From: Candidatus Bathyarchaeia archaeon
GTDB lineage: Archaea; Thermoproteota; Bathyarchaeia; Bathyarchaeales; Bathycorpusculaceae
Assembly: GCA_049521795.1 (NCBI GenBank)
Contig: JBEKOM010000003.1
Span: 32,001-96,000, forward strand
DNA: 64,000 bases
Reading direction: 5' to 3'
Below are positions 15,531-32,953 of the stretch, piece after piece; position 1 is the stretch's first letter, and every line of letters starts with the position of its first letter. The translations under genes were made by a program, and so were the position numbers. Under the pieces are notes generated by a model that saw only the letters and a program-made list of their open reading frames with translations, did no database searches and had not been told where the DNA came from.

Positions 15531-15645
15531 TCTTTGGGTTTGAGATAAAACCTTACCCTTTCTCTCTCTCCTTCTTTACTTCTATTACCTACTACTATCT
15601 TCTGTCAGACAGACAGGCAAACAGACAGACAAACACACATAGAAC
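15531..15645 (+). repeat. Cassette-end element A (left type)
   Basis: TTTGGGTTTG-AGATAAAACCTTACCC (15543-15558) followed by CT-rich then CA-rich tracts. Confidence 0.75.
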
Positions 15646-15723
15646 TACAGTCTGTGATTTTGCGGAAAAGTTATAGCTGAACCGAGGTAGACTACATTGT
15701 TTGGCAATTGATAGGTGTTATGG

Positions 15724-16179
15724 ATGGTTGGCATTTCAGAGATATCTACGGTAGTGGCAGCGGCAGGCGTGTTGATAGGTGTGGTTCTTACTGTCGTGGA
15801 GCTGAGAAATCTGGTCAAACAGAGAAAGACCGACCTAGTGACGAACTTGTATTCAATTTACTCCTCGGAAGGGTTTCAAAAAGAGTGGCACACGTTCATG
15901 ACAGAAGAACTTGGCAGCCTTAAGACGTATCAAGACAAGTTTGGTGTGGAGTTTCCGCCGTCCGCAGTATTCTTCAACGAAATAGGGATTCTTCTGGAAA
16001 AAGGACTGATTGATGTCAACTTGGTCAACAGTCTTTTCGGCGGCGTCATTCCGAGATATTGGAAGAAGTTCAAGCCTTTCCTCGAAACTTGCAGAAGGGA
16101 AATCAATCAACCGAAATTGGGTCGAGGACTAGAATATCTGGGCAACGAAATCCAGAAACTTCAATCCAAGAAGGGTTAG
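15724..16179 (+). CDS. DUF4760-like membrane-anchored protein
   Basis: MVGISEISTVVAAAGVLIGVV TM, RKTDLV, FFNEIGILLEKGLID, LEYL. Confidence 0.75.
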   Translation: MVGISEISTVVAAAGVLIGVVLTVVELRNLVKQRKTDLVTNLYSIYSSEGFQKEWHTFMTEELGSLKTYQDKFGVEFPPSAVFFNEIGILLEKGLIDVNLVNSLFGGVIPRYWKKFKPFLETCRREINQPKLGRGLEYLGNEIQKLQSKKG

Positions 16180-16180
16180 A

Positions 16181-16636
16181 ATGGTTGACGTAACAGAGAT
16201 TTCAGCTATTGTTGCGGCTGCAGGTGTGTTAGTAGGTGTTGTCTTGACGGTTCTTGAGATCAGAAATCTAGTCAGGCAGAGACAGACAGACCTTATAATG
16301 AAACTCTACTCGGATTTCGACAATATCGAATTCCAGAAGGTATGGAGGGAGGTTTTGAACAGAGAGGCCAAGGATAGTCTTGATTATGAGAAAAAATATG
16401 GCTTGGCTGAATTTACCGCGGTTGGCATGTTCTTTGAAGGAATCGGTATTCTTCTTAAAAGAAAACTCATAGACATAGACCTAGTCGACGACATGTTCAC
16501 GACTCCTATCAAATGGACATGGGAAAAGATGAAAGATATAGTATTGGAAGCCAGAAAGGTCAGAAATCAACCAGAGATATTGGAGTGGTTTGAATACCTT
16601 TATAACGAAATGAAGAAAAGAGAACAACGACAGTAG
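16181..16636 (+). CDS. DUF4760-like membrane-anchored protein (paralogue)
   Basis: N-terminal TM, RQTDLI, FFEGIGILLKRKLID, WFEYLYNEMKKRE. Confidence 0.8.
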   Translation: MVDVTEISAIVAAAGVLVGVVLTVLEIRNLVRQRQTDLIMKLYSDFDNIEFQKVWREVLNREAKDSLDYEKKYGLAEFTAVGMFFEGIGILLKRKLIDIDLVDDMFTTPIKWTWEKMKDIVLEARKVRNQPEILEWFEYLYNEMKKREQRQ

Positions 16637-16707
16637 AGTCTTGTTCTACGGTTGAGATGAAACGCTGTCGCACTTTTGAACAAGTTAAAATAACGTTGGC
16701 AATTTGA

Positions 16708-16938
16708 ATGGGTTACAAGTGGCGTGGAACAAGTGGTCAGTTGAGACTGGTTGAATTGGAATGCAGACGTCTAGGAATACCAACTGGCGCGCGGGAAACG
16801 AGAAGGGTTTATGCTCGTGGAAGAGAGGTAGCTGCAAGTGTAGCTGTAACGTGGAGACATCAAACTGTAACTGTGAAGGGTGACTTTCAAGACCGTTACA
16901 GAGACCTTAAGACGGGTCGTTTCATCAGGGAGCCTTAG
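16708..16938 (+). CDS. Small basic hypothetical protein
   Basis: ATG ORF of 76 aa ending RDLKTGRFIREP. Confidence 0.35.
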   Translation: MGYKWRGTSGQLRLVELECRRLGIPTGARETRRVYARGREVAASVAVTWRHQTVTVKGDFQDRYRDLKTGRFIREP

Positions 16939-17029
16939 AAAAACAGAATTCCGATGAACCGCTGACGTGTGCGATACGTTTGCTAGGCAAGTGCTGAATT
17001 TAGCGTAGCAAACGGGCGCAGACAATTTA

Positions 17030-17554
17030 TTATGGTTTCTTCTGGCTCTTTTTCACAAGGTGTTGGGCTATTGCTGACATGCTTAGGAGCCTGTAGTTTG
17101 TTTCGTCGTGCAGGTCGACTAGAAAGCTCTCAATGCTATCAACGTTGATGAAGGGAAGTTGTCTTGTCAGTCTCAAGGCTTCTACATAGGCTGAATAGTC
17201 TTCATAAAACGTTATGAAGAGCCTATTCTTGTTGCGGTTAATGCCGCTCACGGCCATTAAGGATGCGTGGGGATGCTTTTTTTCGACTTCAGCGGCCAAC
17301 TTTCTAATTTCTTTGAATCCTTCTTTGTAGGGCTGGTCACGAACTGCAATAGATGTGATCCCCATAATCTCGTAACCCAGCTTGCTGAAATCAGGTATTA
17401 TCGTGTATTCTTTAATATAGCCTTCTTTCTCCAGTTTCTTTATCGTTCTACTTATCGTGGGTTGAGAAACACCCAAGGCCTTAGCCAGTTCTCTGTCGCT
17501 TCTCCTGCAATTCTTCATAAGTTCAGATATCAATCTCAATTCGACATCTTTCAT
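17030..17554 (-). CDS. Lrp/AsnC family transcriptional regulator
   Basis: RRSDRELAKALGVSQPTISRTIKKLEKEGYIKEYT HTH; PDFSKLGY linker. Confidence 0.9.
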   Translation of the reverse strand: MKDVELRLISELMKNCRRSDRELAKALGVSQPTISRTIKKLEKEGYIKEYTIIPDFSKLGYEIMGITSIAVRDQPYKEGFKEIRKLAAEVEKKHPHASLMAVSGINRNKNRLFITFYEDYSAYVEALRLTRQLPFINVDSIESFLVDLHDETNYRLLSMSAIAQHLVKKSQKKP

Positions 17555-17610
17555 GACTCTCCTTGTTGATTGTGAAAGGATTTGAATCCATCGGTTGACG
17601 CCCGAAACTT

Positions 17611-17745
17611 AAGCGCGAGCTTCGGTGTTTGTGTGTGCGTGTGTGTGTTTTTTACTTGTTTGTTTTTTTAGAGAGAGTGAGTGAGAGAGTTAGAGAGAGG
17701 TAGTAGGAGAGAGAGAAAAAGATAAAACCTTACCCCAACCAACCC
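17611..17745 (-). repeat. Cassette-end element B (right type, mirror of A)
   Basis: TG-rich then GA-rich arm, AGATAAAACCTTACCC (17720-17735), then CAACCAACCC. Confidence 0.75.
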
Positions 17746-17797
17746 GATCTAAAAAGACGAGGAAAAAAGAATGGAACTGACAGAAGATGAGGTGATT

Positions 17798-18112
17798 CTA
17801 TTTGGCTTTTTTCAGCATTTTCAGAATTTCTTCGTTCTTGCTCACAATCTTTCTTTCCATTGTATTCCATGAGAGCCATGCCATAATGCACGGTTCCATT
17901 TGGAGTTTTTGCATGGCGTCAAGACTCCCTTCGAACACCATGTATATTATGTGTTCTGGGAAGTCAGTCCATGAGCCAAGTAGCTTTGTTCCATGTTTCT
18001 TCGTCAGGCTGTCCATTGTAGATAATAATTCCAAAGTGCTCTTTCGATGTTTCTCATGAAAAGCAGGGCAGTTGTCAGGAGTATGCCTACTTATCCACAT
18101 GAATACTGGCAT
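17798..18112 (-). CDS. Small hypothetical protein (DUF3303/GYD-like ferredoxin-fold)
   Basis: MPVFMWISRHTPDNCP...KKHGTKLLGSW...EHIIYMVFE pattern; start at ATG 18112. Confidence 0.6.
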   Translation of the reverse strand: MPVFMWISRHTPDNCPAFHEKHRKSTLELLSTMDSLTKKHGTKLLGSWTDFPEHIIYMVFEGSLDAMQKLQMEPCIMAWLSWNTMERKIVSKNEEILKMLKKAK

Positions 18113-18311
18113 AGTCCAACCTAATTCAGAACACTTTATAAATTTTACGGATGGTTTGGGTTCGCGCGCGCTAACCCAACGCACACTTTGCGCAGCTGGA
18201 AGAAGCTTTAGCAGATGATACAGTTAGGATTTTCTGCTTTTCATGGAAGTCTAGCGAGATTGCAAAGTGTTAAATGCGATATACACTGATGCTTTTCTGG
18301 GGGTGAGAAAG

Positions 18312-18725
18312 TTGGTTTTAGGGGAAAAACTGTGGGAGGAAAAGGGCAAAGTGGTAGCGATGTCAATCAAATCCGTAGGGCCTGAAGGTGTACACATGGA
18401 ACAGACTTTTACGAGCGTAGTGAAGGGTTTTGGCCGAGCCCCAAGCGGCACAAACATGGGAACATTAGACCTTGTCCAGGCTCCTGACGGAGGCTACAGC
18501 GGAAGCGGTCAAGGGATATTCACGTCCCAGGACGGGGATACCGTGATTTGGAAGATTCACTTCTTTGGTAAGATGGAAGCAGGCAAGAGCCGGGACTTTA
18601 ACGTCGCAAGGTTTTGGACTGCCTCTCAAAAGCTCGCTTGGATGAACGGGGCCATCGCTGCTATAGAAGGCACTGCTGACATGAAGACTATGGAGTTGAG
18701 CGGCACAGGTTACGAGTGGAAGTAG
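18312..18725 (+). CDS. Hypothetical beta-rich protein
   Basis: LGEKLWEEKGK...GSGQGIFTSQDGD...KLAWMNG...YEWK; TTG start after GGGTGAG. Confidence 0.65.
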   Translation: MVLGEKLWEEKGKVVAMSIKSVGPEGVHMEQTFTSVVKGFGRAPSGTNMGTLDLVQAPDGGYSGSGQGIFTSQDGDTVIWKIHFFGKMEAGKSRDFNVARFWTASQKLAWMNGAIAAIEGTADMKTMELSGTGYEWK

Positions 18726-19005
18726 GCGAGAATTGCGCTTGTCCACTTCCAATTGCCTTTCCTTTTTCATTTTGAGTTGTTCTAATAATTCAAGACAGAA
18801 GCGTCATGATAAATAACTTAACATCCATGGACCCTAATCGAACAGAATCACCCAACACACTCTTTTTCTTCCAGAAGAAGAGGAGGAGAAGAGGTAACGC
18901 CAAGTGTGCTCATAAGGAAGTCCAAGGGATTATTGGTAGCCGCAAAAAGACCGGAGACGCAACCTGTAAGGGTCTCGGGTTTTCAAGGGCGTGCGCACTG
19001 AGGAA

Positions 19006-19103
19006 TGGTGGGCCCGGGGCGATTTGAACACCCGACCAACAGGTCTCTCAACGCGATGAACATTTATGAGCCTGGCGCTCTAACCGGGCTGAGCTACGGG
19101 CCC
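19006..19103 (-). tRNA. tRNA-Ile2 (CAU anticodon) with a 20-nt intron at 37/38 (19045-19064), CCA encoded
   Basis: GGGCCCG acceptor stem (Ile-type rather than Met-type); CTCA/TGAG bulge-helix-bulge; TTCAAAT T-loop. Confidence 0.88.
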
Positions 19104-19214
19104 AGACGTTGGTTTGATCCCTTTAGTATGCTGTTTCAGAGTCAATTTAAACGTTTTCCGCATCTGGGCCACTGTAATGAAAGCGCGGGCGTCACAGGCA
19201 GAACCAGCGTGTAA

Positions 19215-20117
19215 TCATGAATGACTGCAGGCTTTAGTGCGTTCGTAATGATACAGATACTCTTGTGCGTAACCCGCGTACTTGCCGAAGTACAGTCTTC
19301 CAAATAAGTTCAGCTGCCTGTATCCTGATTCGCTGAGGGATTTCTGACCTGAGATGGTGTCCACAAAATTGCTTGGAAAACTGCTAGCGTAATGCCTCAA
19401 AACTGCTCTTCTGATCCATACATCGACTGGAAAAGCATCGAGTTTTTCAAGGGAAAAAAGCAGGACACAGTCTGCCACCTTGGGGCCCACTCCTGGAAAT
19501 CTGAGCAATTCCTCTTTTGCTCGGTCATAAGCTGCCTTCTTTAATTGTTCCAGATCATAGGCGTTCTTGAAGATTTCCTTTGAGGTTTGTGAAACGTACT
19601 TCGCCCTGTAGCCAAGTTCACATTCTCTCAGACTATTCAGAGTTGCTTTGGCCAGTTTCATCGGGGTTGGAAACGTGAAGAAACTGTAACCGTCAAGAAC
19701 GACTTTTCTCCCGAATTTTCTGGAAAGATGCTGCAGCATCCGTTTTATTGCCGCAATATTCTTGTAGGTTGCGCAGATGTACGAGATGAGACATTCCCAT
19801 GGGTCTTGCCTGAGAATGCGAAGACCCTTGAACTCTTTAATCGCCTTCTCTATGTGCTTGTCTCTGTTGATTTGTGAAAAAATCTCTGGCAGGTCATCGT
19901 TCAACCCGAAGTATCTCTTGACGAAGGTTTCGCGTGCGTTTTCAAACTCCAGCTTGTCTCCGCTCTGTCGAACTTTGAAAACATCTTCTCCGACTGTGCC
20001 GTACCACCAAGCGCCCTGTTTTTCCCACGGGAACGTCTGTCCACAGCACAAAGTGAAGTTCAAGTCAAAAGGAAGCGGAAGATCCAGTTGAACCATGGTC
20101 GATCTCACGCTATTCAT
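19215..20117 (-). CDS. 8-oxoguanine DNA glycosylase (OGG1/AlkA HhH-GPD family)
   Basis: TLCCGQTF, GLRILRQDPWECLISYI, LGYRAKY, FPGVGPKVADC, AFPVDVWI, YAGYAQEYLY. Confidence 0.92.
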   Translation of the reverse strand: MNSVRSTMVQLDLPLPFDLNFTLCCGQTFPWEKQGAWWYGTVGEDVFKVRQSGDKLEFENARETFVKRYFGLNDDLPEIFSQINRDKHIEKAIKEFKGLRILRQDPWECLISYICATYKNIAAIKRMLQHLSRKFGRKVVLDGYSFFTFPTPMKLAKATLNSLRECELGYRAKYVSQTSKEIFKNAYDLEQLKKAAYDRAKEELLRFPGVGPKVADCVLLFSLEKLDAFPVDVWIRRAVLRHYASSFPSNFVDTISGQKSLSESGYRQLNLFGRLYFGKYAGYAQEYLYHYERTKACSHS

Positions 20118-20179
20118 TCTTCAAAGTAGTTTTAAACCCTTATTGATCAAGAATGCATGGAAAGCTGGCGACAGCGAGG

Positions 20180-22363
20180 TCACCTGAGGATTTCGTCCAC
20201 AAAAGCCCTCGGTTGAGGCACTTCAGCCGGCAAACCTCTTCGCACACGGAGCTGCTTGACCACTTCGGCCTCAAGCTTTTCAGACATTTTCTCCCAGTGG
20301 TTGAAGGTCAGCTGCAAAAAAACATGGCCGGAGGTTGCGGTCCGCATTTCTGCAGGGAGGCCGAAAGTCTGTGCGACTGGAACGTAGCCTGTTATGATTG
20401 CTGCCAGTCCTTTCTGCTCAGTGGCCTCTATTTTTCCGTGTCTGCGAGTTATTATCTTGGAGCACGCGCCAAGCCATTGCAACGGAACGGACACTTCGAC
20501 CTTGTAAATCGGCTCCAACAGTGTAGGGTTCCCTGTCAGCAACGAACCCAGAATCGCGCGGCTTATCGCCCGCATGACTTGGCTTGGTTCTCGATTTTCG
20601 GGATTTCTGTCAAACTTCACGTCCATAAGCTTGACTTTCACGCCTCTCAAAGGCTGTTCGCTAAGAGGCCCGGTTCTGCACGTCCAGATGAAACCTGACA
20701 CGACATCGTTCTTCACCTCCTGAAGATGCTCAGTGTGCTTGGTTGAATCTACTAGAATGTTGATGTGCTCGTCCACGGCCCAAATCTCTTCGTCCACATT
20801 TTTTGCAAGCTTGTCTTCACTGCGTGTTAGGCCCTTTTCTAGGATTGTTATCGTTTTCCTTTCAAGCGGCTCTGTCTGAACCCAGAACTCGTTAAGCTTG
20901 TTAGGACTCTTCGTCATCACGAGTGCTCCACTTTTGAGAACAGTTTCTCTGTACGCTGCAATCGGGCTGGTTGCATCAAGCTTGACGTCACCGATGTGCT
21001 TCTTCAAGAAGTTCATGGCAACGTCCAGGTGAAGCTCGCCCATTCCGCTGAGCAAGTGTTGGCCCGTTTCAGTGTCCACGGTTGCTACGAGGTTTGGGTC
21101 TTCAATCGAAAGTCTTTTCAGTCCCTCAAGAAGGCTTCCTAGGTCTTTAGGGTTCTTCGGTTCTACCGCTATGGTCATAACGGGCTCTGACTCGCGGAGG
21201 GCATTCTCAAACGGAATGCAGATGCTCTTGTGTTCAGCATCGACGACCGTTTCCCCGGCCCTTGCTGATTCAAGTCCTGTCAACGCTGCAATGTTGCCAG
21301 CAGAAATGTGGCTCACAGCTTCCCTGAAAGCACTCATGTAAAGGGAAACGCTTTGCACGCAGTGGTCTTTGCCTGCGCTAACCAAGTGAACATTGTCGCC
21401 TTTTTCCACAGATCCCGAGAAGATCCGTCCAGTGGCAACCAAACCCTCGTTCTGAACTATCTGAGCCGCAGTTATGTCTATCACCGTTGGCCCTTGGTCG
21501 TCGCAGTTCACCATTGCCTGACCGATCTCCGACGTCAAACTGCCCTTCCAGATCTTTGGAACGCGGTATCGTTGGCTTTCTACAGGGCTTGGCAGGTTCT
21601 TCACGACCATGTCAAGTATTGCGGTGTGAAGAGGAACAACCTGCGAGAGTTCCTGCCATGCTTCATGCTCATAGGCGTCCGTGAAGTCACCATCACTGAA
21701 CCTCATGCCTTTCTTCTCAGCTATTTCCAAGGTGAATCCCCACCTGTGTAGCGCTGAACCGAAGACGACGCTCTGTTTTGAAGGGTCAACTTTCCAGTTC
21801 TCCTTGAACCTTGGCTCACAATAAATCTCGATGATGTTGTTGAAATCCGTGATAATTCGGACAAACTTTTTCTGAATCGCATCGGGGGAAAGCTTCAGCT
21901 CCCTTATCAGACGGTCAACCTTATTTATGAAAAGAACAGGTCTCACCCTCTCCTCAAGAGCCTGACGCGTGACAGTTTCCGTCTGAGCCATCACCTCTTC
22001 AACGGCGTCCACAACGACGATCGCACCGTCAACCGCGCGCAAAGCCCTCGTCACTTTACCAGTGAAGTCCACGTGCCCAGGAGTGTCCACCAAGTTTATC
22101 AGATAAGGAGACCCGTCCACTTCATGCAGAAACGAAATGTTTGCCGTCTTAATCGTGATGCCGCGTCTTTGCTCTTCTTCCAAATAGTCCAGAACTCTTG
22201 CTGAACCTGCTACGCGTGACGGCAGAAGTCCCGCTTCGACCAGCAGCGAATCGGTCATCGTTGTCTTCCCATGATCGATGTGGGCCACCACGCAGACGTT
22301 GCGAATACGCTCTTTCTTGCCCATCAACCTCAGCAACTCTGCCGTCTGCCGAAACTTTGGCAC
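20180..22363 (-). CDS. Elongation factor 2 paralogue (aEF-2p-like) lacking the diphthamide His
   Basis: AHIDHGKTT, RGITI, DTPGHVDF, NKVD, GMGELHL; domain IV loop reads DRNPENREPSQ rather than HxDxxHRGxxQ. Confidence 0.9.
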   Translation of the reverse strand: MPKFRQTAELLRLMGKKERIRNVCVVAHIDHGKTTMTDSLLVEAGLLPSRVAGSARVLDYLEEEQRRGITIKTANISFLHEVDGSPYLINLVDTPGHVDFTGKVTRALRAVDGAIVVVDAVEEVMAQTETVTRQALEERVRPVLFINKVDRLIRELKLSPDAIQKKFVRIITDFNNIIEIYCEPRFKENWKVDPSKQSVVFGSALHRWGFTLEIAEKKGMRFSDGDFTDAYEHEAWQELSQVVPLHTAILDMVVKNLPSPVESQRYRVPKIWKGSLTSEIGQAMVNCDDQGPTVIDITAAQIVQNEGLVATGRIFSGSVEKGDNVHLVSAGKDHCVQSVSLYMSAFREAVSHISAGNIAALTGLESARAGETVVDAEHKSICIPFENALRESEPVMTIAVEPKNPKDLGSLLEGLKRLSIEDPNLVATVDTETGQHLLSGMGELHLDVAMNFLKKHIGDVKLDATSPIAAYRETVLKSGALVMTKSPNKLNEFWVQTEPLERKTITILEKGLTRSEDKLAKNVDEEIWAVDEHINILVDSTKHTEHLQEVKNDVVSGFIWTCRTGPLSEQPLRGVKVKLMDVKFDRNPENREPSQVMRAISRAILGSLLTGNPTLLEPIYKVEVSVPLQWLGACSKIITRRHGKIEATEQKGLAAIITGYVPVAQTFGLPAEMRTATSGHVFLQLTFNHWEKMSEKLEAEVVKQLRVRRGLPAEVPQPRAFVDEILR

Positions 22364-22680
22364 GCCTCACACCCACTTCAAGACTGATACCTTTTCTATA
22401 TTCCAATTAGAATTAGAATGTTTAGAACTTCTCCGAGATTTGCTTTATCATCCAAATGCGTGTTCCTTCCCTGATCTGAGCAGAATTCCAGAAGAGGAGG
22501 GTTTGCAGCAAAATGGGCGTGTGCAGAGGTTCTTCTTATACGAAGCCTCGTAAACGACTAAGTCCTTCTTCGCCCTTTGAACGCAGACTTCCACTCGTGC
22601 TCGTTCAAAAGCGTACTCTTGCAGCAAAGGTTTAAGGCTGTTGGAAGTAGTTGACTTGGCTTGAACAGGTGTGACGTGAC

Positions 22681-23070
22681 TTGAAAAGAACAGTAGCCCT
22701 AGTGGCTCATGACAACAAAAAGACTGATCTCGTGGAATGGGTTGAATTTAACAAGGGTACATTGGCGCTTCACAACCTTTATGCAACAGGGGGAACAGGG
22801 AAAAAGATCATAGAGAAAACAGGCCTAAACGTTGCCTTACTCAAGGACGGCTCTCAGGGAGGAGACATGGAGCTCGGCGCTTTGATAGCTAACAGAAAAT
22901 TAGATTATCTGATCTTCTTCTGGGACCCGTTGGAATCTCTTCCTCATGACGTTGACGTTAAGGCCCTTCTCAGGATAGCCGTCCTCTACAACATCCCGAC
23001 TGCCTGCAACCGAGCGACAGCGGACCTAATCATCTCGAGCCCACTGTTCTCGAGAGAATACAAACCCTAG
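22681..23070 (+). CDS. mgsA: Methylglyoxal synthase
   Basis: VALVAHDNKK, LYATGGTG, FFWDPLESLPHDVDVKALLR, PTACNRATAD. Confidence 0.93.
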   Translation: MKRTVALVAHDNKKTDLVEWVEFNKGTLALHNLYATGGTGKKIIEKTGLNVALLKDGSQGGDMELGALIANRKLDYLIFFWDPLESLPHDVDVKALLRIAVLYNIPTACNRATADLIISSPLFSREYKP

Positions 23071-23680: not shown

Positions 23681-23814
23681 TGGCGCCGGGAGTGGGACTT
23701 GAACCCGCGCGGCCCCAAAGGGCCACTGGCTTACTTGCTAGGAACAGATTCCCAAACATAAGCGCATTTTCTTTTGCCTCAAGGCCAGCGCATTAACCAC
23801 TCTGCCATCCCGGC
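23681..23814 (-). tRNA. tRNA-Ser (UGA) with a 46-nt intron at 37/38, CCA encoded
   Basis: GCCGGGA acceptor, long variable arm GGCCCTTTGGGGCC, CTTG/CAAG bulge-helix-bulge. Confidence 0.9.
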
Positions 23815-25467: not shown

Positions 25468-25585
25468 ATCACATCATTGATTAGTTCTTTTTGGAGTTCT
25501 TATGACTTGTGGAAGAAATCCTATGCATACAATAGTCCAAGATACGGTGAAAAACTTCCAGAGGGTCTCTGAAATCTTTGTAGCT

Positions 25586-26077
25586 TTAGGCTTTTGATTG
25601 CTGAAGCTTCTGTTCTTTCTTCTTCATTTCATTGTATAGGTATTCAAACCACTCAAAGAATTCTGGGTTGTGATATTCCTTTCTCATACCTTCAGCGAGA
25701 GGCTTCATCTTCTCCCACATTATGTCTATGGGAAAAAGTTGACTAATCAGAGAAGCGTCTATGAGCCCATTTCTGAAGAGAACCCCAATTTGCTCAAAGA
25801 AGTTGCCCATCATCATGAACGACATGGGAACCTGGTTTCTAGACATGGGTTTTCCATACCTTTTTACAAAATCGTCGTAGTCTTTGAACTCAACTTCGAA
25901 GATATCCACAAATGCTTCTAAGAATTCTTTGTTTGTGGAGATATCATAGGAGAGTCTGGTTACAAGGTCTGTTTGTCTCTGCCTTACCAGATGTCTAAGT
26001 TCCTGAACAGTCAGAACAACACCTACCAGCACGCCTGCTGCTGCAACCATTGCTGAAATCTCTGTAATGTCAACCAT
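25586..26077 (-). CDS. DUF4760-like protein
   Basis: MVDITEISAMVAAAGVLVGVVLTV, RQTDLV, FFEQIGVL, FEWFEYLYNEMKK. Confidence 0.8.
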   Translation of the reverse strand: MVDITEISAMVAAAGVLVGVVLTVQELRHLVRQRQTDLVTRLSYDISTNKEFLEAFVDIFEVEFKDYDDFVKRYGKPMSRNQVPMSFMMMGNFFEQIGVLFRNGLIDASLISQLFPIDIMWEKMKPLAEGMRKEYHNPEFFEWFEYLYNEMKKKEQKLQQSKA

Positions 26078-26564
26078 TCTTCACACCTTTTTGCTGGAGT
26101 CGCTGTTCTCTTTTCCTCATTTCATTGTAGAGATATTCGATGTGTTCAGCATATTGTGGATAGTTGAACTTTTTCCTAGTGTCTTCTGCTATTGGTTTCA
26201 GTTTTTCCCAGAACCATTTGCTTGGTCCAGTGAAGAGGTCGTCAACCAGCCTTATGTCTATTAGTTTATTCTTTAAGAGAACACCTAATGCTTCAAAGAG
26301 GTAAGTAGACTCAGGCGTAGGATTAGAACGAATATTATATTTCTTAACAAAGTCGTTGTAGTCTTTGTAGTCGCCCTTGATGAATTCAGTCCAATGTTCT
26401 TGGAACTCATTACTGCCAAAAGTGGCATATAACCTCAGGACAAGGTCTGTCTCTCTTGTTCTAGCTTGGTGACGAATATCTAGAATGTAGTAGACAACAC
26501 CCATAATGACGCCTGCAGAAGCAATAGCTACAGAAATAGTCTGAACATCAACCACTATTGACAC
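26070..26564 (-). CDS. DUF4760-like protein
   Basis: N-terminal TM, RETDLVLRLY, FEALGVLLKNKLID, EYLYNEMRKRE. Confidence 0.78.
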   Translation of the reverse strand: MSIVVDVQTISVAIASAGVIMGVVYYILDIRHQARTRETDLVLRLYATFGSNEFQEHWTEFIKGDYKDYNDFVKKYNIRSNPTPESTYLFEALGVLLKNKLIDIRLVDDLFTGPSKWFWEKLKPIAEDTRKKFNYPQYAEHIEYLYNEMRKREQRLQQKGVKNG

Positions 26565-26697
26565 CCAGAAGACAAGATTAGCCGAGATCAGTATTAAAGA
26601 CTACATCATATAGAGAACGACATAGAAAAGAAGCTTCCAGTTGTCATTCAGAAAAGACAATAAAAGAAAGTGATGGTCTGATATGCTTTTGCTGTTC

Positions 26698-27168
26698 TTA
26701 ACTCTTCTTTGGCTTTTTCAGCATTGAGCCAGCATACAGCCCGATGAAAGTCAATACCAAGATCAGTACGACATTCAGAACGACGTAGGTCATTAGTGCC
26801 AATTGTCCATAAACGTACCAATCCGTTTTTGTCCACGCACCCGTAGCGTACATACTCTTTAGGGTTTCATCAATCCAATCTTTGTAATAGGGATTGGCAG
26901 CAGCACTTATCATCACATAAAAAGCCACGACCCATGCGGACAAAACAGATATTTTACCGACTGCTCTAATTCTGGATTCTTCTTGTATCTTTCCAGCAAG
27001 AACGTAGCCTACAACTAATGCGGCGATTAGCATGGATATGATTCCAGCAGAATTCATTCCCCAATAAGAGCTTATGGACGGAATCAAAGCTGCACCTAAG
27101 ACAAACCAAATCATAACATCAATCACATCTATAGAAGCCACAGCTAGAATTACGTCACCAAATTTCAA
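26698..27168 (-). CDS. Hypothetical 4-TM membrane protein
   Basis: TTG start (LKFGDVIL) after GGAGGTGA; four hydrophobic helices. Confidence 0.7.
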   Translation of the reverse strand: MKFGDVILAVASIDVIDVMIWFVLGAALIPSISSYWGMNSAGIISMLIAALVVGYVLAGKIQEESRIRAVGKISVLSAWVVAFYVMISAAANPYYKDWIDETLKSMYATGAWTKTDWYVYGQLALMTYVVLNVVLILVLTFIGLYAGSMLKKPKKS

Positions 27169-27253
27169 CCTATCACCTCCCTTGAAGCCAAAAACACATG
27201 TGTGTTCTCGGTTCACCTATAAGGTTTACGAAAAACCTAAAAACTGATCATCT

Positions 27254-27793
27254 TCAAACGGTTCTTGTCAGTATTTGTGGTTCTTTCCATTCATCCCTGA
27301 GGATGCTGAACATGACGGTGTCTCTCCATTCTCCATTACTGAAAAATCGTTTTCGCATTATCCCTTCTTTTTGGAAACCTGAATTCTCTAGAACCTTTTG
27401 TGAGGCAACATTTCCAACATCTGTCGTGGCTTGAATGCAAGCTATGTCTTTTGAGAGAAACAAGTAATCCACCATCATCTTTGTAGCTTCGGTGCAGTAG
27501 CCTTTTCCTCTTTCGCTTGGAAGTAATGCATATCCTATTTCCTGCATTTTCGTATAGGGTGCAAGCATGTTGAAGTGTGCTATGCCACCGATTTTGGTTC
27601 CGTCTTTCTTCTCAATAATGAATTGTCTATATTCCAAGGGATTGGTTTCAAAAGTCTTCTCCATGTCTGTCTTGGTTCTCTGTATTGGAGAGAAATATTC
27701 ACCCCAGAACTCGGGGTTGTTCATCCATTCCGCAATCAGAGGCAAGTCCTCCTTTTCCACAACCCTCAGATTCACACTCTTGCCTTCAAGCAA
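27254..27793 (-). CDS. GNAT acetyltransferase (RimJ/RimL-like)
   Basis: EIGYALLPSERGKGY, NVASQKVLENSGFQKEG. Confidence 0.9.
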   Translation of the reverse strand: MLEGKSVNLRVVEKEDLPLIAEWMNNPEFWGEYFSPIQRTKTDMEKTFETNPLEYRQFIIEKKDGTKIGGIAHFNMLAPYTKMQEIGYALLPSERGKGYCTEATKMMVDYLFLSKDIACIQATTDVGNVASQKVLENSGFQKEGIMRKRFFSNGEWRDTVMFSILRDEWKEPQILTRTV

Positions 27794-27887
27794 TCTGTAT
27801 CACCACATGTTTCATCGAATGTTTTCAGCTCTTATGGTTTGTGATTGACCACTCTAAGCTTAGAGCAACCGTACTACGATGAAAAAC

Positions 27888-28637
27888 CTACAGAGCCCCA
27901 GAAATCTTTGGTTGTCTCTTTTCATAGACTATGACTGCTAGTAGTGTTGCTATCATAAAGAACGGCAGAATAAGGAAAGTTGGGAATTCTGGCACAACAT
28001 TACTCCAATGAATTGTCAGTTTGGGAGAATAATCTGTAAGATTAATTGGAGCTTCTTTAGATTCGAACGAAACCAAAGAATTCTGAATAGATGGTTCCCG
28101 TAAAACTACTGTTACTGCTTCAGCATTGCTGTTCAAAGCATTCTTGACAGCATCAACTGTGCTCCAATTATACCATTGATTATTGACCGTAACCAATACT
28201 GAGTCCATTGACGTTGTGTTGTAACTGGGCATATTGGAATATGTCAATGAAGACTCAGTCCACGAATAATTAGTGCAAAAATGAGCATGAACATCGTTTG
28301 TTCCATAAACGTTAGATGGATACAACTGAAGTGTAGCCACGTCAATCACAGCCCCTTTAGGAACAGAAGACAACTCGAATTTCAGCCATACTACCTCTTC
28401 AACTTCAGAAAATTGACCTCCATAGTAATGATACTCATTTAATGTTTCAAGTATGGTTTCTCCACCAAAGGTCAATGTTTGAAAACTTGAATCAACGAAT
28501 GTATCATCTGATGGCTTGAGTGTTACCTGTCCAGCCTGAGCATTAACTGTCTCGATACTTAGAGAAAAAACCAAGACTAGACTTAAAACTAGGGCAATGA
28601 CAATTTCTCTGAAAATATCGATTCTCTTTTCACTCAT
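27888..28637 (-). CDS. Secreted DNRLRE/CBM96-like domain protein with PEF-CTERM-type anchor
   Basis: Start MSEKRID; LKPSDDTFV, WLKFELSSVP, WTESSLTYSNMP; C-terminal VVPEFP-TM-basic. Confidence 0.75.
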   Translation of the reverse strand: MSEKRIDIFREIVIALVLSLVLVFSLSIETVNAQAGQVTLKPSDDTFVDSSFQTLTFGGETILETLNEYHYYGGQFSEVEEVVWLKFELSSVPKGAVIDVATLQLYPSNVYGTNDVHAHFCTNYSWTESSLTYSNMPSYNTTSMDSVLVTVNNQWYNWSTVDAVKNALNSNAEAVTVVLREPSIQNSLVSFESKEAPINLTDYSPKLTIHWSNVVPEFPTFLILPFFMIATLLAVIVYEKRQPKISGAL

Positions 28638-28873
28638 TCTTGAACCTCTAGTTCGTCTTCTGTTGTCGTGTAGCCTTAAGATTTCTGTCTTTTGGTGTCT
28701 GGCTAGGGAATAATATTGCATTTTGTCTAATGCCTTTTCCCTTGTTTATCGAAAACTCATCTTTCTCAAGAGTGTCCTGGACACCTCTGCCAATGTAAAG
28801 AAGATTGACCCAATTGACCCAAAGAACATTGACCTAAAACTCTTAAATAACAGCTCCTCAAGTGAAAATACGA

Positions 28874-28951
28874 GGGCCGGTAGTCTAGCTCGGTTAGGAC
28901 ATCTGCTTGACGTGCAGAAGGTCGCCGGTTCGAGTCCGGTCCGGCCCACCA
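28874..28951 (+). tRNA. tRNA-Val (GAC), CCA encoded
   Basis: GGGCCGG acceptor; TCTGC-TTGACGT-GCAGA anticodon arm; GGTTCGAGTCC T-arm. Confidence 0.93.
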
Positions 28952-29199
28952 AGAACCTTTTCTATCGAAGGAAGCTTCTAACGGGCATTTTGCATGAATT
29001 CGAACATCGTGTGCTAAGGGCAGAATTCGCGTTAAGTTCAAATATTAGCTTTCAGGTTGAATGACTGTATTCCTATCGAACGGTTGAGGGCGGCAAATAG
29101 TGATCAAGAATGGTTTGAGGGTTGATTCTTGCATTCGATTGTTTTGTTGTTTCTTGGTATTTGCCATCAAGGAGTTCCTTGCCCGCTAGGTGTTTGAAA

Positions 29200-29460
29200 A
29201 TGGCTGAAGAACGCTCGCAGGAGAGTGGAAGAACCCGAATCCGGCTTGGCTATTTGGGAACGTTGATGGTGCTTCTCATAACCGCGATGGCTGGAACTGG
29301 GTTTATGATTGGTCTGCTGCTTCTGGTGTGGGAATTGATCGGAGGCATTTTGTCTGGATTTCTATTGTTCGTCACAGGGTTCTCAGGTCTAGTGACCCTA
29401 ATAGGAATCGTCATTCTAGGACTCTCAAGAGAGCAAGTTTCCGTAGACGAATCAAACTAA
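29200..29460 (+). CDS. Small membrane protein
   Basis: MAEERSQ followed by two hydrophobic segments. Confidence 0.55.
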   Translation: MAEERSQESGRTRIRLGYLGTLMVLLITAMAGTGFMIGLLLLVWELIGGILSGFLLFVTGFSGLVTLIGIVILGLSREQVSVDESN

Positions 29461-29578
29461 TCCTCAACGCTGACTCTGGCCAGTTTAATGTGTGTTCAAG
29501 CCTTTCTGCCAAAAAGACCTGAAGGTTGCAAGCTTAATTAACGACTTTTGCATGTCAGAATCTTGAGGGTTTGAGACT

Positions 29579-30475
29579 ATGCCTAGACTTGTGTTGGATG
29601 GGATTTTTGTGCCTCACGTGACACCTTTCAAGCGTGGAGGTCAACTCGACATCAATGCACTGAGGGAATGTGTCAGGTTTTGGATGAAAAGCGGGGTTTC
29701 AGGGTTAGTCCCTTGTGGAAGCAACGGCGAAGCTCCTTACCTTTCTAGGCAAGAAAGAAAGAAGGTCATTGAAACCGTTCTGGATGAGGTCAACGGAAAG
29801 GTTCCGGTGGTCGCGGGAACAGGTAGCATGAGCACGCAGGAAACTGTCGCGTTTACAAAGGATGCGGCTGAGTTGGGCGTGGATGCTGCTCTAATAGTGA
29901 CACCCTTCTATTTCAGACTCACAAGCAGAGAAATCTATGAACACTACAGGACAGTGTGCCAAGCCGTGGACCTTCCGATCGTTGTCTACAACGTTCCAAA
30001 GTTCACAGGCTTCTCTCTGGAACCATCTTCCATTGAGAGACTGGCGTCTGAAAATCAGAGCATAATAGGGTTGAAGGAAAGCAGCGGGAGCTTCGGTACG
30101 ATAAGCGAGGTCATAAGATTGCTTGGCAACAGGCTTTCAGTCCTGGCTGGCACAGCAGACGTTGCGCTTCCAACACTTCAAGCTGGAGGCAGAGGCGCGG
30201 TGATAGCGGTTGCGAACGTGTTCCCAACATTGTGCAGTCGTTTGTACAGGGCTTATAAAAAAGGCCAATACGAAGAGGCAAGTAGACTGCAAAACCGAAT
30301 ATCGTTTGCAAACGAGGTGCTCGTCAAAAGGTTCAATCAACTCTCAGCCATCAAAGAAGGGATGAGACTGGAAGGACTGCCAGGGGGTTACCCTCGCAAA
30401 CCAGCGTTGCCACTGGATGAAAAAGAAAGAAAAACCCTTGAAGACCTGCTGAAGAAAATAGAGGAACCTGTCTAG
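29579..30475 (+). CDS. dapA: Dihydrodipicolinate synthase (DapA/NAL) family aldolase
   Basis: GSNGE (variant of GTTGE), VPVVAGTG, VYNVP, IIGLKESSG Schiff-base Lys; substrate uncertain. Confidence 0.8.
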   Translation: MPRLVLDGIFVPHVTPFKRGGQLDINALRECVRFWMKSGVSGLVPCGSNGEAPYLSRQERKKVIETVLDEVNGKVPVVAGTGSMSTQETVAFTKDAAELGVDAALIVTPFYFRLTSREIYEHYRTVCQAVDLPIVVYNVPKFTGFSLEPSSIERLASENQSIIGLKESSGSFGTISEVIRLLGNRLSVLAGTADVALPTLQAGGRGAVIAVANVFPTLCSRLYRAYKKGQYEEASRLQNRISFANEVLVKRFNQLSAIKEGMRLEGLPGGYPRKPALPLDEKERKTLEDLLKKIEEPV

Positions 30476-30548
30476 GCGACGACGTTCACCAAAACAGATA
30501 AGAACTCGTGCATGAACCAACACTGCATCAAACAGGAAGTGAACAGCG

Positions 30549-30743
30549 GTGCCTGCTGAAATCGTTGATGCCGACCGATTCGTCACTATAAGCGAGCGTG
30601 CAGACTACTGTGCCGTCAAGAGACTGAAAGAGGTTGTGAAGCTGAAGCTTCGCACGCCGAGCAGACTTTACACGTTGAAAGTTGAGCCGCTGAAAGCTGA
30701 AGAAATAATCAAGAAGCTCCAATGCGAAATCCGCGAGGTATAG
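30549..30743 (+). CDS. rpl38e: Ribosomal protein eL38-like
   Basis: MPAEI..D...F...VKLKLRTPSRLYTLKV...KAEEI matches the eL38 pattern. Confidence 0.75.
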   Translation: MPAEIVDADRFVTISERADYCAVKRLKEVVKLKLRTPSRLYTLKVEPLKAEEIIKKLQCEIREV

Positions 30744-30970
30744 GGACATTTTGAAGAAATTCTCATACGTTTTCTAACCCATTTCCCATGATAGACTAAT
30801 CCATCTGTGCTGTCCACCCAATCAAATTCGACTTTGGCCAGTTTCTTCAGTTCACTCCTCGACTGTGCAGCTCTGTCACAGAAAGTGACGCGCAAATCAG
30901 TACGTAGAGATAGGCTCTATGCACGCGTTGAATAGTGGATTAATCTATTTCGCTATATTAGAACCAACGT

Positions 30971-31122
30971 TTTCTTTTGGGTTTGGGATAAAACTTTACC
31001 CTTTTTCTTCTTCTCTCTCTACCCTCTCTCCTACTAACCCTCTCTCTACAAACACACGCACACACAAACACACACAGACAGAAACAGGGAGAAGGCACAC
31101 AGAGATAGGAAACTGCCGCGCG
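30971..31122 (+). repeat. Cassette-end element C (left type)
   Basis: TTTGGGTTT-GGGATAAAACTTTACCC (30985-31001), CT-rich arm, CA-rich arm, ending CCGCGCG. Confidence 0.75.
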
Positions 31123-31296
31123 TTATTTCTTTGATTTTCTGGCTAGTTCGAATTCGCGGTCTTTCTTCAAATAGGCGATGCAGTACTCAATGGCATGGCT
31201 CATTGAGGCGAATGTTCTCTCGTCAGAATCAACTTGACGCTTCAACCAGTCGTAAAGTTCCTGATCTATGCTGATCGCAATCTTCTTTTTCGGCAT
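31123..31296 (-). CDS. Ribbon-helix-helix (CopG-like) protein, 57 aa, not in ORF track
   Basis: MPKKKIAISIDQELYDWLKRQVDSDERTFASMSHAIEYCIAYLKK: alternating beta-strand, helix, S-x-S-H-A-I-E helix. Confidence 0.75.
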   Translation of the reverse strand: MPKKKIAISIDQELYDWLKRQVDSDERTFASMSHAIEYCIAYLKKDREFELARKSKK

Positions 31297-31382
31297 CTAA
31301 CGGTCATTCCGCAATATCCTAGCTATGCTCACTTAAATGTTTATACTACTCAATCAGACTGTTTAGTCGAAAGAATTAAATA

Positions 31383-31402
31383 GTATGACTAGGTATGACT
31401 AG
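31383..31402. promoter_or_regulatory. Tandem direct repeat, putative RHH operator
   Basis: GTATGACTAG twice in tandem upstream of the RHH gene. Confidence 0.4.
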
Positions 31403-31509
31403 TATTGTCGCCTGTGAGTGCGCAAATCAGTATCCGCTGCAGCTCTCCCCTGAGCACAAAGACTCATCTTGTGGGCTCACAGACGATTCATACTAATCAG
31501 GTGAAAAGC

Positions 31510-31617
31510 ATGCAAAAGGTGAAGACTGTCCCGAAGAAATGTCGCGACTGCAAGATCAGCAGCAGCCAATATTGTATCACCATGTGCCCAGAAAACAGGT
31601 GGGTACACCACATATAA
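31510..31617 (+). CDS. Tiny Cys-rich peptide (CxxC...CxxxC)
   Basis: MQKVKTVPKKCRDCKISSSQYCITMCPENRWVHHI after AGGTGA; divergent from the RHH gene. Confidence 0.4.
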   Translation: MQKVKTVPKKCRDCKISSSQYCITMCPENRWVHHI

Positions 31618-31674
31618 ACGGCGCGCCGTACTCAAATGGAGCCACACGTACCTTACAACGTCACAATGGTATCG

Positions 31675-31774
31675 TAGCGCGCGCTAATAGACTTCCGTTT
31701 TTTTTGTTTTTGTTTGAGTGCGTCAGTTAGAAAATGAGAGAGAGAAAGGCTAAACTTTACCCCCAAACGCAAAC
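31675..31774 (-). repeat. Cassette-end element D (right type)
   Basis: TAGCGCGCGCTA, T/G-rich then GA-rich arm, GGCTAAACTTTACCC (31748-31762), CCAAACGCAAA. Confidence 0.7.
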
Positions 31775-31829
31775 TTCTGCGGGCGTTTACCGAAACCCAA
31801 GATTGGGATAGTAGATTGAGAAGGGCAGA

Positions 31830-32774
31830 TCATTCTATGCTTTTTTCGTAAGCTACGTCTGTCCTAGCGACTTTGAAGCCAACCTTCTCGTATAGCCGCA
31901 TAGCTTTCGTCACGTTCCAGTCATCCACTGCCAACATCGCAACGGTCATGCCCTTAGCCTTCAACAGGTTCATGCCATGCAGCATCAGCTTGGTTCCGAT
32001 CCCCGTTCTTCTGTGCGGCTTCAGCACACCGATGTCCAAGACCCAGCCACATTTGGCGTTTTTTTCCGCATTGTATGACTCATATATACCTATGCCGATG
32101 TAGCCAACGTGCTTCCCGTTCAAGATGGCGAAGAACCATTCTTGAATCTTGAAAAATGGGTCTTCTCGCACGAAATAAACCGTCCGCTCAAGAGGGCTAG
32201 GTCGCCAGTTGAAGCCTTCCTTGAAGCACTCATTGTCGAGCCGATTAAGCATCTCCAAATCCTCATCTGCATCTCTTCGGAGGGGTTCCAACACGACTTC
32301 CATGTTTTCCCCGATGTCAGATTGAAGCCCAACAAGCTCTCTAGCCATTAGGCTGAACCTGCGGACCAACTTGAACCCCCAGCTCTCCCATAGGCTAACG
32401 ATGTCCTCTTCGTCACTTTCAGCTGAACTTTGAGCAACCGTCATCCCACGATTCTTCAGCTCTTCCAGAGCTGTTTCAGCGAGTTTTTCTTCTATCCCCT
32501 GACCTCGAAACTCGGGAACAACTCCGAAATCATTCACGAAACCCTTCTTCTCCTCCCTGAACTTGTCGACATAAGCATGAACAATTCCCACAGGCTGGTT
32601 ACTCAGCTCAGCGATGAATCTTCCTTCAGAATCAAAATCAGGCGACTTCTCAATAATCCTCATCTCATCTACCGTCATCGACGCCTGGCCCAAACGCACG
32701 CCGTAAACCGCATTCCACACCCTAAGCCAGTCCGCCTCGTCCATCCCTAGAACGAAACGCCTAACCTTCAGCAA
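31830..32774 (-). CDS. Tandem-domain GNAT acetyltransferase (MshD-like)
   Basis: Two acetyl-CoA motifs, VVPEFRGQG and VLKPHRRTGIG; AMRLYEKVGF. Confidence 0.88.
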   Translation of the reverse strand: MLKVRRFVLGMDEADWLRVWNAVYGVRLGQASMTVDEMRIIEKSPDFDSEGRFIAELSNQPVGIVHAYVDKFREEKKGFVNDFGVVPEFRGQGIEEKLAETALEELKNRGMTVAQSSAESDEEDIVSLWESWGFKLVRRFSLMARELVGLQSDIGENMEVVLEPLRRDADEDLEMLNRLDNECFKEGFNWRPSPLERTVYFVREDPFFKIQEWFFAILNGKHVGYIGIGIYESYNAEKNAKCGWVLDIGVLKPHRRTGIGTKLMLHGMNLLKAKGMTVAMLAVDDWNVTKAMRLYEKVGFKVARTDVAYEKSIE

Positions 32775-32825
32775 CCAGCTCCCTCCAAGTCTTCCGTAAC
32801 GACTTAATGCACGCAGATTTAAACA

Positions 32826-32953
32826 TAGCGCGCGCCTGTGTGTTTGTATATCTCACTCTCAAAGAGAGAGAAGAGAGGAGAAGGGAAAGAGAAGAAGATG
32901 GAGATGTAGATGATTTGGGGTTTAGGGATAAAACTTTACCCGAAACTCAAACC
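32826..32953 (-). repeat. Cassette-end element E
   Basis: TAGCGCGCGCC, TG then GA-rich arm, GGGGTTTA-GGGATAAAACTTTACCC (32925-32941)-GAAACTCAAACC. Confidence 0.72.

Follow-up and report, generated by a model that had tools for sequence, protein, structure and literature searches.

We analysed a 64,000-nt stretch of DNA (the window) from a Candidatus Bathyarchaeia archaeon, corresponding to positions 32001-96000 of contig C3 in genome G000 (2.44 Mb, 69 contigs, 48.6% G+C). Five copies of a short near-palindromic sequence, which we call cores A to E, lie in the window and delimit three small gene-carrying elements: A-B (element 1, 2.2 kb), C-D (element 2, 0.75 kb) and D-E (element 3, 1.2 kb). 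An earlier note, made from this sequence alone, had interpreted the cores as attL/attR-like ends of cassettes that lack an integrase of their own and are mobilised in trans. Comparison with related genomes and metagenomes points to a different mechanism: the elements are probably cargo-carrying, non-autonomous derivatives, stacked into arrays, of casposon-like transposons that encode a stand-alone Cas1 and no family B DNA polymerase (PolB).

Cores, arms and cargo in the window

Cores A and B contain an identical 16-mer, cores C and E contain an identical 17-mer, and core D is a variant, all as first described (Table 1). The 16-mer of A and B is a rare two-position variant. Scanning the window with the pattern GRTAAAACYTTACCC and at most one mismatch gave four matches, all on the plus strand; none of 100 shuffled sequences gave any. 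The 20-mer ACACACGCACACACAAACAC, which joins the arms of B and C in inverted orientation, was found exactly at 17625-17644 (-) and 31052-31071 (+) and in none of the shuffles. The mirrored flanks were also confirmed: A and C have TTTGGGTTTG outside and CT-rich then CA-rich DNA inside, and B, D and E show the reverse. The left arm of element 1 is homologous to arms beside other cores. As judged against a null of shuffled pairs, the inner arms of A-B form an inverted repeat with a score of 28, reached by 0.6% of the null, and those of C-D form a weak one (score 17, reached by 2.6% of null pairs). The ends of D-E are short and of the CCCAAAC type.

The cargo differs from element to element. Pfam searches supported the earlier labels for the DUF4760 pair, the Lrp regulator and the GNAT acetyltransferase, but gave no match for the 57-amino acid product that had been called a ribbon-helix-helix (RHH) protein. 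Homologues of the Lrp-type regulator recur beside cores elsewhere. Other core-linked cargo in G000 includes four more GNAT proteins, DUF4760, SnoaL-like, glyoxalase and SDR proteins, methyltransferases, metallo-beta-lactamase-fold proteins, PadR and Lrp regulators, and many proteins of no known family. In contigs from one public sequencing run (X4), the DUF4760 module was joined behind core C (31002 to 15660, depth 4) and, at a second joint, behind core B (17744 to 15656, depth 10.6); these joints were placed at 90% likeness, may come from relatives and serve as a hint only.

Table 1. Features of the three core-bounded elements in the window (positions are those of the window)
Feature	Position	Strand	Remarks
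Core A	15543-15558	+	AGATAAAACCTTACCC; TTTGGGTTTG directly before; read as left copy of the duplicated 16-bp target
Element 1, left arm	15559-15639	+	CT-rich then CA-rich; taken as left terminal inverted repeat
Element 1 cargo, two tandem DUF4760 genes	15724-16179, 16181-16636	+	Pfam PF15956, E = 1.6e-7 and 7.8e-14
Element 1 cargo, Lrp/AsnC-type HTH regulator	17030-17554	-	Pfam HTH_24, HTH_AsnC-type
Element 1, right arm	17625-17719	+	TG-rich then GA-rich; mirror of left arm
Core B	17720-17735	+	AGATAAAACCTTACCC; CAACCAACC directly after; read as right copy of the duplicated target
Core C	30985/6-31001	+	(G)GGATAAAACTTTACCC
Element 2, left arm	31002-31085	+	CT-rich then CA-rich
Element 2 cargo, ORF of 57 amino acids	31123-31296	-	No Pfam match
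Element 2, short overlapping ORFs	31405-31647	both	Gene calls
Element 2, right arm	31696-31747	+	Mirror-type flank inside core D
Core D	31748-31762	+	GGCTAAACTTTACCC; degenerate, one base shorter; common to elements 2 and 3
Element 3 cargo, tandem-domain GNAT acetyltransferase	31830-32744	-	Pfam PF00583, E = 1.8e-28
Element 3, right end	32836-32925	+	TG/GA-rich tract then GATTTGGGGTTTAG, abutting core E
Core E	32925/6-32941	+	(G)GGATAAAACTTTACCC; C and E have GGGATAAAACTTTACCC in common

Copy number, distribution and orientation of the core

The core is a multi-copy, lineage-restricted site. The genome-wide scan proposed in the earlier note found 21 strict copies in G000. With up to three mismatches to GGATAAAACTTTACCC, 70 matches were obtained (15 without mismatch, 11 with one, 17 with two and 27 with three), and overall we put the intergenic copies at about 45. 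Forty-three copies have at most two mismatches, and 37 of these are intergenic by our gene calls, located in divergent (12), tandem (16) and convergent (8) spacers and at a contig end (1). The exact 15-mer was present in all 10 other genomes of the genus that were searched, at 1-27 copies each; among 30 genomes of other genera, six had one or two copies and 24 had none. A reversed control pattern had no match in those genomes save one, in G036. The exact 16-mer occurred patchily, in 12 of 301 genomes sampled from the class, and large sister genera had no copy. In the public genome collection, among the matches listed, all records with at least two matches were titled Bathyarchaeia or Bathyarchaeota. 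A search of a collection of papers found no mention of the motif.

Adjacent cores are 99-4877 nt apart. They have the same orientation in 21 cases and opposite orientation in 15 across genomes (18 and 11 within G000); among 113 deduplicated adjacent pairs, the numbers are 78 and 35. The earlier statement that the core always points the same way thus holds in the window, where four of four matches are on the plus strand, but not across genomes. Three IMG/VR contigs (L168, L175 and L177) carry two or three cores each. One of them, L175 (9.9 kb, classed as viral), has three cores at one end, beside genes without Pfam matches and a MEDS-domain gene; a Pfam search of nine of its ORFs returned nothing informative except the MEDS domain.

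Flanks of the core

The DNA beside the cores has a strand bias: read outward from the core, 63 of 86 sides have more C than G (989 C versus 557 G). The flanks are modular, and the commonest is short, with CCAACC or CCCAAAC at the right and the complement at the left. The low-complexity arms described in the window are present and mirrored there, but they are a minority feature in G000, where a G-poor arm of at least 60 nt was found on 7 of 102 core sides. These long arms run from CT-rich to CA-rich, end near a GCGCGC motif, and are true repeats of about 100 nt that are homologous between loci. Genome-wide, the 90 nt preceding genes show a 2.7-fold enrichment of GCGCGC, often just ahead of TATA-like boxes, and the dominant promoter words TTAAAT and TAAATA lie at about -50 to -30 from start codons. 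At one locus (G000 C1:553265 compared with L228 of G002), only one of the two species has a low-complexity arm, of 75 nt, separating the core from the conserved flank, indicating that arms themselves are gained or lost. Single-strand DNA folding of five sites gave z-scores of -0.12 to -1.80, not above shuffles, and the half-armed A and B had no hairpin; attC-like folding was rejected because it was not significant against shuffled sequences.

Synteny breaks and module turnover

Thirty-one loci of G001 and G002, the two nearest relatives (about 88-94% DNA identity), were compared with G000. Thirty core-centred loci were chosen, together with one window-syntenic stretch per genome, that of G001 (L028) replacing the core-centred L028; intergenic midpoints in the same loci served as controls. 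A single colinear high-scoring segment pair (HSP) of at least 300 nt spanned none of 54 cores but 45 of 182 controls (Fisher p = 2.4e-6). Under a looser rule, which accepted colinear HSPs within 700 nt on both sides, the counts were 0 of 50 cores and 51 of 168 controls (p = 2.5e-7). Every core marks a synteny break. With HSPs of at least 300 nt, homology ended within 30 nt of 18 of 54 cores and 25 of 182 controls (odds ratio 3.1, p = 0.002). A breakpoint statistic in which 15 of 308 endpoints fell within 20 nt, as against 3.9 expected from a uniform null, was set aside, because intergenic clustering alone could produce such an excess.

Individual loci displayed the turnover directly. Homology between G001 and the window stops exactly at the last base of core C, beyond which G001 has an unrelated gene instead. 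The two conserved genes that enclose the C/D/E locus are separated by 77 bp in G003, 97 in G002, 327 in G009, 575 in G001, 1183 in G004, 2536 in G005 and about 3.26 kb in G000. An empty site of the form foreseen earlier (outer flank, one core, outer flank) was found at G000 C2:12476, where a single core lies between contiguous flanks; in the occupied counterpart on G002:C34, 3.8 kb of DNA, bounded by two direct cores and containing a third, separates these flanks. Different DNA lies between the same two cores in G002:C5 and G000:C8, and one conserved left flank with its core is followed by three unrelated right sides in three genomes. Copies of three core-to-core modules, 89-95% identical, were found in unrelated contexts, and modules that are adjacent in G000 are scattered along the G001 chromosome. 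A 1.5-kb piece with two genes, encoding a 122-amino acid product and an AAT-family acyltransferase, is 98% identical between G000 C7:68353-69896 and G002:C21:29666-31209; set against the usual syntenic level of about 88-94%, this identity suggests a recent transfer. The cores do delimit small modules without a recombinase of their own, as had been proposed, and the cargo varies between relatives. We hold with greater confidence than the Cas1 mechanism that the cores are junctions of mobile modules.

Apparent duplication of the whole core

Four of the 113 deduplicated adjacent pairs have an identical non-consensus 16-mer at both ends, whereas 0.74 would be expected; all four are direct repeats. 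The variant positions common to both members are 1 and 10 (A-B), 13, 3, and 10 and 16. A staggered cut followed by fill-in yields a target-site duplication. Variants at either extreme of the 16-mer are common to both copies, which argues that the whole 16 bp was duplicated as a target site and not assembled by crossover; a conservative crossover fits only if both parental sites already had the same rare variants. As judged from these sequence patterns, the direct repeats appear to behave as whole-site duplications, not as the attL/attR crossover hybrids of the earlier note, a reading that these patterns do not support. Signs of target-site duplication came from three quarters: the direct 16-bp copies around Cas1 units (below), the rare-variant pairs, and the one empty/occupied locus.

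Association with a stand-alone Cas1

We clustered 1,017 open reading frames (ORFs) located within 1.5 kb of cores. A Cas1 family was among the three most recurrent, with eight members from seven sources. The core-linked Cas1 belongs to a solo clade: it is 47-67% identical to Cas1 genes without a Cas2 neighbour, but only 25-29% identical to the type I-A Cas1 of the genus, which is part of a Csa1-Cas1-Cas2-Cas4 module. It is about equally distant from CRISPR Cas1 structures (E = 3e-15) and from the Methanosarcina mazei casposase (7e-13). At E <= 1e-20, at least 1,916 relatives of the stand-alone Cas1 were found, several per genome. The window itself contains no Cas1. G000 has seven pieces of the gene, all fragments, and five of these have a core at a distance of 24-1455 nt (distances by manual comparison). 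In G001, a 3.6-kb element consists of a core, a 110-nt CT/CA arm, Cas1, three ORFs, an inverted arm and a core, with an inverted-repeat score of 70.

The association was also approached from the unbiased direction, by a metagenome scan that started from relatives of the stand-alone Cas1 and not from cores, and that yielded 57 loci. The exact 14-mer core was present in 13 of them; among the loci of at least 8 kb it was present in 9 of 21, one being the query's own contig. Five further long loci contained a sister core, the palindrome GGATTAAAWTTTAAYC. In three loci (L263, L265 and L272), direct cores at a distance of 5.1-6.3 kb enclose an intact Cas1, and the inner ends are inverted repeats of about 12-16 nt (CCAACCCAACCC / GGGTTGGGTTGG) that abut the cores. 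In four others (L257, L258, L268 and L295), Cas1 lies between direct sister cores 5.1-7.3 kb apart; L287 has no such bracketing repeat. The two sister-core Cas1 proteins tested share 84% identity, as against 59-64% with four main-core Cas1 proteins, so that core type appears to track Cas1 clade in this comparison of two proteins with four.

Residues E164, H229, D241 and E244 are invariant in five stand-alone Cas1 proteins and one CRISPR Cas1. The catalytic tetrad of Cas1 is named in PMC9939771, and by their correspondence to it these four residues are likely catalytic; the Cas1 of the 5-7-kb units is apparently active. Matches to PF01867 had E values of 1e-45 to 1e-50 in the units L227/G002:C28, L265 and L272, with no adjoining Cas2, Cas4 or Csa1. 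The Cas1 units have in common a protein of about 310 amino acids with a weak P-loop match, one of about 131-154 amino acids and one of about 225 amino acids. No PolB was detected among the 10 ORFs tested in each of two unit annotations, which cover three units. PolB genes of family PF00136 are present as three conserved chromosomal copies per genome in G000-G002, elsewhere than in the units. The sole match to PF03175 in G000 was a fragment of a protein-primed family B polymerase (E = 8e-21) on an orphan 2.5-kb contig, G000 C48 (L255); it may come from a virus, a plasmid or a classical casposon, and no link between it and the cores was found.

The Cas1 unit of G002:C28 is part of a 9.2-kb stretch (C28:6480-15738; L227/L228, L256) in which an intact stand-alone Cas1 is accompanied by a ThiF (E1-like) gene, a prokaryotic E2 gene and a proteasome-like gene. 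This set resembles ubiquitin-like defence modules.

Proposed mechanism and alternative explanations

In the model that we favour, the near-palindrome GGATAAAACTTTACCC would be the specific insertion target of casposase-like transposons in soil and peat Bathyarchaeia, and each insertion would duplicate the target, giving a 16-bp target-site duplication. The autonomous units would be 5-7 kb long and would contain Cas1 and a few conserved genes, without PolB, between the short inverted ends CCAACCCAACCC.../...GGGTTGGGTTGG abutting direct cores. A-B, C-D and D-E would be non-autonomous elements, with cargo between inverted ends and the duplicated core on either side, presumably inserted in trans; the long CT/CA arms would act as element ends, that is, as terminal inverted repeats. 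Because each insertion remakes two targets, modules could stack back to back with one core between neighbours, and such stacking would account for the usual resemblance of both core flanks to element ends, for the synteny breaks at cores and for the shuffling of modules between species. What the data show is how the site is built, its signature of duplication, its turnover, and that it is associated and co-varies with the stand-alone Cas1; catalysis by this Cas1, mobilisation in trans and the role of the arms as ends we infer. Of the original cassette proposal, mobilisation in trans is thus retained, and the Xer/att mechanism is dropped. The casposase of Nitrosopumilus koreensis is target-specific and accepts very diverse ends (PMC8464041), a tolerance that could explain heterogeneous modules at a single target. 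Its target, ATTGATAAAGAGT, follows a TTT leader and has ATAA as a 'ruler' (PMC8464041); GATAAA and a T-rich left border are found in the core as well, which we note as a resemblance only.

A possible, though doubtful, extension is that the stand-alone Cas1, being target-specific but tolerant of diverse DNA ends like that one casposase, serves as a gene-capture machine, which would insert any suitable linear DNA into the 16-bp repeat, duplicate the repeat each time and build integron-like arrays. If so, the modules would be gene-sized 'spacers' acquired by the chemistry of CRISPR adaptation, and the system would be a living intermediate between a casposon and a CRISPR array.

Several observations weigh against the Cas1-driven model. 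The long CT/CA arm type is joined to Cas1 in only one element, that of G001, and the gene there has an internal stop; the intact Cas1 units have different, short inverted repeats and not the long arms of the window. Only Cas1 fragments are present in G000, so the elements there may be fossils. The unit of G002:C28 lies between inverted cores and has no clear inverted ends. Cas1 could be mere cargo like other genes, and the number of proteins behind the co-variation of core type and Cas1 clade is small. Inner inverted repeats exceeded the 95th percentile of the null in only 11 of 113 adjacent pairs and the 99th in three. Within the window, the inverted inner arms ascribed to the elements hold for A-B and weakly for C-D, but not for D-E, with a score of 8 that was reached by 90% of null pairs. 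The 35 inverted pairs among the 113 are unexpected under a simple duplication model. Many island breakpoints lie away from cores, the two shortest versions of the C/D/E locus (G003 and G002) have no core whatever, and the breakpoint excess at cores was lost when only HSPs of at least 500 nt were used (10 of 54 versus 22 of 182, p = 0.26). Finally, no insertion event, excision or circle junction was observed; the four public runs were compared as assembled contigs only, in which starts, excision and circles cannot show.

Conservative site-specific recombination by tyrosine recombinases, with the core as an att- or dif-like crossover site and the modules integrated and excised as circles, is the model of the earlier note and would account equally well for the breaks exactly at cores and for the empty/occupied locus. 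Tyrosine integrases are no less enriched near cores than Cas1, which also counts against the Cas1-driven model; among the ORFs within 1.5 kb of cores they form the family that recurs most often (13 members, 12 sources). In L010/L193, L129 and L136, the integrase stop codon is followed after 58-62 nt by a core on the same strand; the distance is 134 nt in L153 and 150 nt in L049. Two integrase genes lie 1 kb from the core array of C7. The integrases of the five loci are divergent, with mutual identities of at most about 45%; the elements that carry them may make use of this same site, or may themselves be modules within the arrays. In G000, an XerA-like gene (C1:609372-610328, minus strand; L184) is followed 2 nt past its stop codon by a palindromic 15-nt core variant, GGGTAAAGTTTACCC, and then by a long CT/CA arm; this recombinase has a paralogue on C8. 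We nevertheless regard recombination of this kind as rather unlikely. Rare variants at both extremes of the 16-mer are common to the two flanking copies, and among 30 integrase loci of the genus, taken without bias, only one had a core within 150 nt downstream and three had an exact core within 1.5 kb. An orthologue 84% identical to a core-adjoining integrase has no core downstream, members of this integrase family are encoded by 52 of the 61 genomes in the taxonomic family, core-less ones included, and in the complete genome G001 no integrase match was found within 9 kb of an exact core (manual comparison). The analogy to Xer systems fared no better: XerA-like genes (E <= 1e-20) were found in 2 of 41 related genomes and in none of the 10 other genomes of the genus, all of which bear cores, and it is the stand-alone Cas1 that tracks the site instead. 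The geometry of the core, a 16-bp palindrome with TAA-N4-TTA, is also unlike that of dif, which is laid out as 11-6-11. Phylogenetic profiling of recombinases was uninformative, the XerA-like genes being too rare and the main integrase family too common, and a recombinase trio (RIT) at C7:73642-77882 was rejected because the third gene encodes an ABC-type ATPase.

The site might also be served by no dedicated enzyme and be a dispersed repeat of flexible islands whose modules are shuffled by general or microhomology-mediated recombination, which we consider quite unlikely. The arms are indeed repeats of about 100 nt common to several loci and vary by insertion or deletion between species, the islands are mosaic with many breakpoints off cores, modules are scattered over the chromosome of a relative, and the excess of breakpoints at cores is moderate and disappears when only long HSPs are used. 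Against this, the breaks fall at the 16-bp core itself and not across the longer arms, and the 16-mer is exact across species whose genes are 75-90% identical; pair members also have rare variants in common, the core type appears to follow the Cas1 clade, and inverted ends with direct repeats surround intact Cas1 in unrelated metagenomes. Very improbable, in our estimate, is a regulatory or architectural site (a bidirectional promoter resembling a B recognition element (BRE) and TATA box, an operator or a chromatin boundary) that travels with acquired genes. The reversed core contains TTTTAT, a word with 3.5-fold enrichment ahead of genes, an arm is often followed by a gene directed away from the core (A, B, E and C7:71136), and an Lrp-type regulator recurs beside cores; however, convergent spacers hold 8 of 36 cores and make up 17.6% of intergenic length, about the background rate, the genes adjoining arms have TATA-like boxes of their own at closer range, and the next gene reads away at four of seven long arms compared with 50 of the 95 remaining sides. 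The core lacks the dominant promoter words, no core was found in a conserved context, and there are large sister genera without any copy. A simple promoter reading was rejected because cores are not depleted in convergent spacers, lack the main TATA words and have arms of uninformative orientation. Targeting of tRNA genes was likewise rejected, since core B alone among the cores has an ARAGORN-called tRNA within 1.5 kb.

Other features of the window

An Rfam scan of the window found nothing beyond three tRNAs, at 19009-19103 (-), 23684-23814 (-) and 28874-28951 (+), of which ARAGORN calls only the last. The first two look intron-containing, and segments that are variable relative to G001 and G002 start right beside both. 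A gene at 13222-14583 (+) encodes a 453-amino acid cohesin-plus-dockerin protein, and paralogous DNA that is 79-82% identical was found on C2 and C3 of G000.

Comparison with known systems

The closest resemblance is to casposons (families 1-4). Both have a stand-alone Cas1 with catalytic residues and terminal inverted repeats: Cas1 lies outside a CRISPR-cas locus in the units L227/G002:C28, L265 and L272, and terminal inverted repeats are present in L263, L265 and L272 and in the G001 element (arms of about 110 nt). Both make a long, sequence-specific target-site duplication, of 13-15 bp at specific targets for the published casposases (PMC8464041, PMC4779613) and apparently of 16 bp here. 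Tandem casposons in Methanosarcina have one duplicated site in common (PMC4779613), as neighbouring modules do here, and co-residence with elements encoding tyrosine integrases is described for casposons (PMC8464041, PMC4779613) and seen here too. Unlike casposons, the three annotated units have no PolB and the units measure 5-7 kb and not 8-20 kb; the target is a multi-copy palindrome and not the end of a tRNA or EF-2 gene, and integrase-less cargo derivatives are abundant, with modules in arrays. Since PolB is missing, we do not file the system as a casposon in the strict sense. Our literature search found no description of casposons or casposases in Bathyarchaeia, nor of natural casposons that are PolB-less, non-autonomous or cargo-shuttling. 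Casposons are rare, the described families all have PolB, and no more than a handful of elements underpin their link to CRISPR. If confirmed, the present system would widen the repertoire of Cas1 integrases, offer a concrete model for the origin of repeat-insert-repeat arrays and explain much of the flexible genome of an archaeal lineage abundant in peat and soil; it would also provide a short defined target and enzyme pair that is directly testable in vitro.

Like CRISPR arrays, the modules would result from Cas1-family integration that duplicates a partly palindromic repeat and thereby produces repeat-insert-repeat arrays. The inserts, however, are gene modules of 0.1-5 kb and not spacers of about 35 bp, no Cas2 lies beside the stand-alone Cas1, repeat orientation is mixed, and the spacing is irregular, in contrast to 24-40-bp repeats with spacers of about 30-40 bp. 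No array came up in a crude CRISPR scan of G000.

Integrons, including the archaeal ones (PMC9668308), likewise consist of small accessory modules arrayed between recombination sites, and the flavour of the cargo is similar (GNAT, glyoxalase, SnoaL-like proteins, methyltransferases and DUFs). The site here is a conserved 16-bp sequence and not a structured attC of variable sequence, the cassettes have their own promoters and occur in both orientations, and the signature is one of duplication and not of crossover. No integron integrase was identified, although PF00589 matches exist and no search was aimed at the IntI-specific domain.

With pdif modules and archaeal XerA-dif systems, the elements have in common a small size, the absence of a recombinase gene, a short palindromic bounding site and varied contexts. 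The flanking sites here are mostly direct and not regularly inverted, whole-site variants appear in both copies, and Xer genes do not occur wherever the sites occur, given the two positive genomes among 41. Finally, miniature inverted-repeat transposable elements (MITEs) and other non-autonomous DNA transposons resemble the window elements in their inverted ends and target-site duplication, the lack of a transposase of their own and presumed mobilisation in trans; here, by contrast, one to three intact genes are carried, the duplication is of 16 bp at a fixed target, and the candidate enzyme is a Cas1 and not a DDE transposase.

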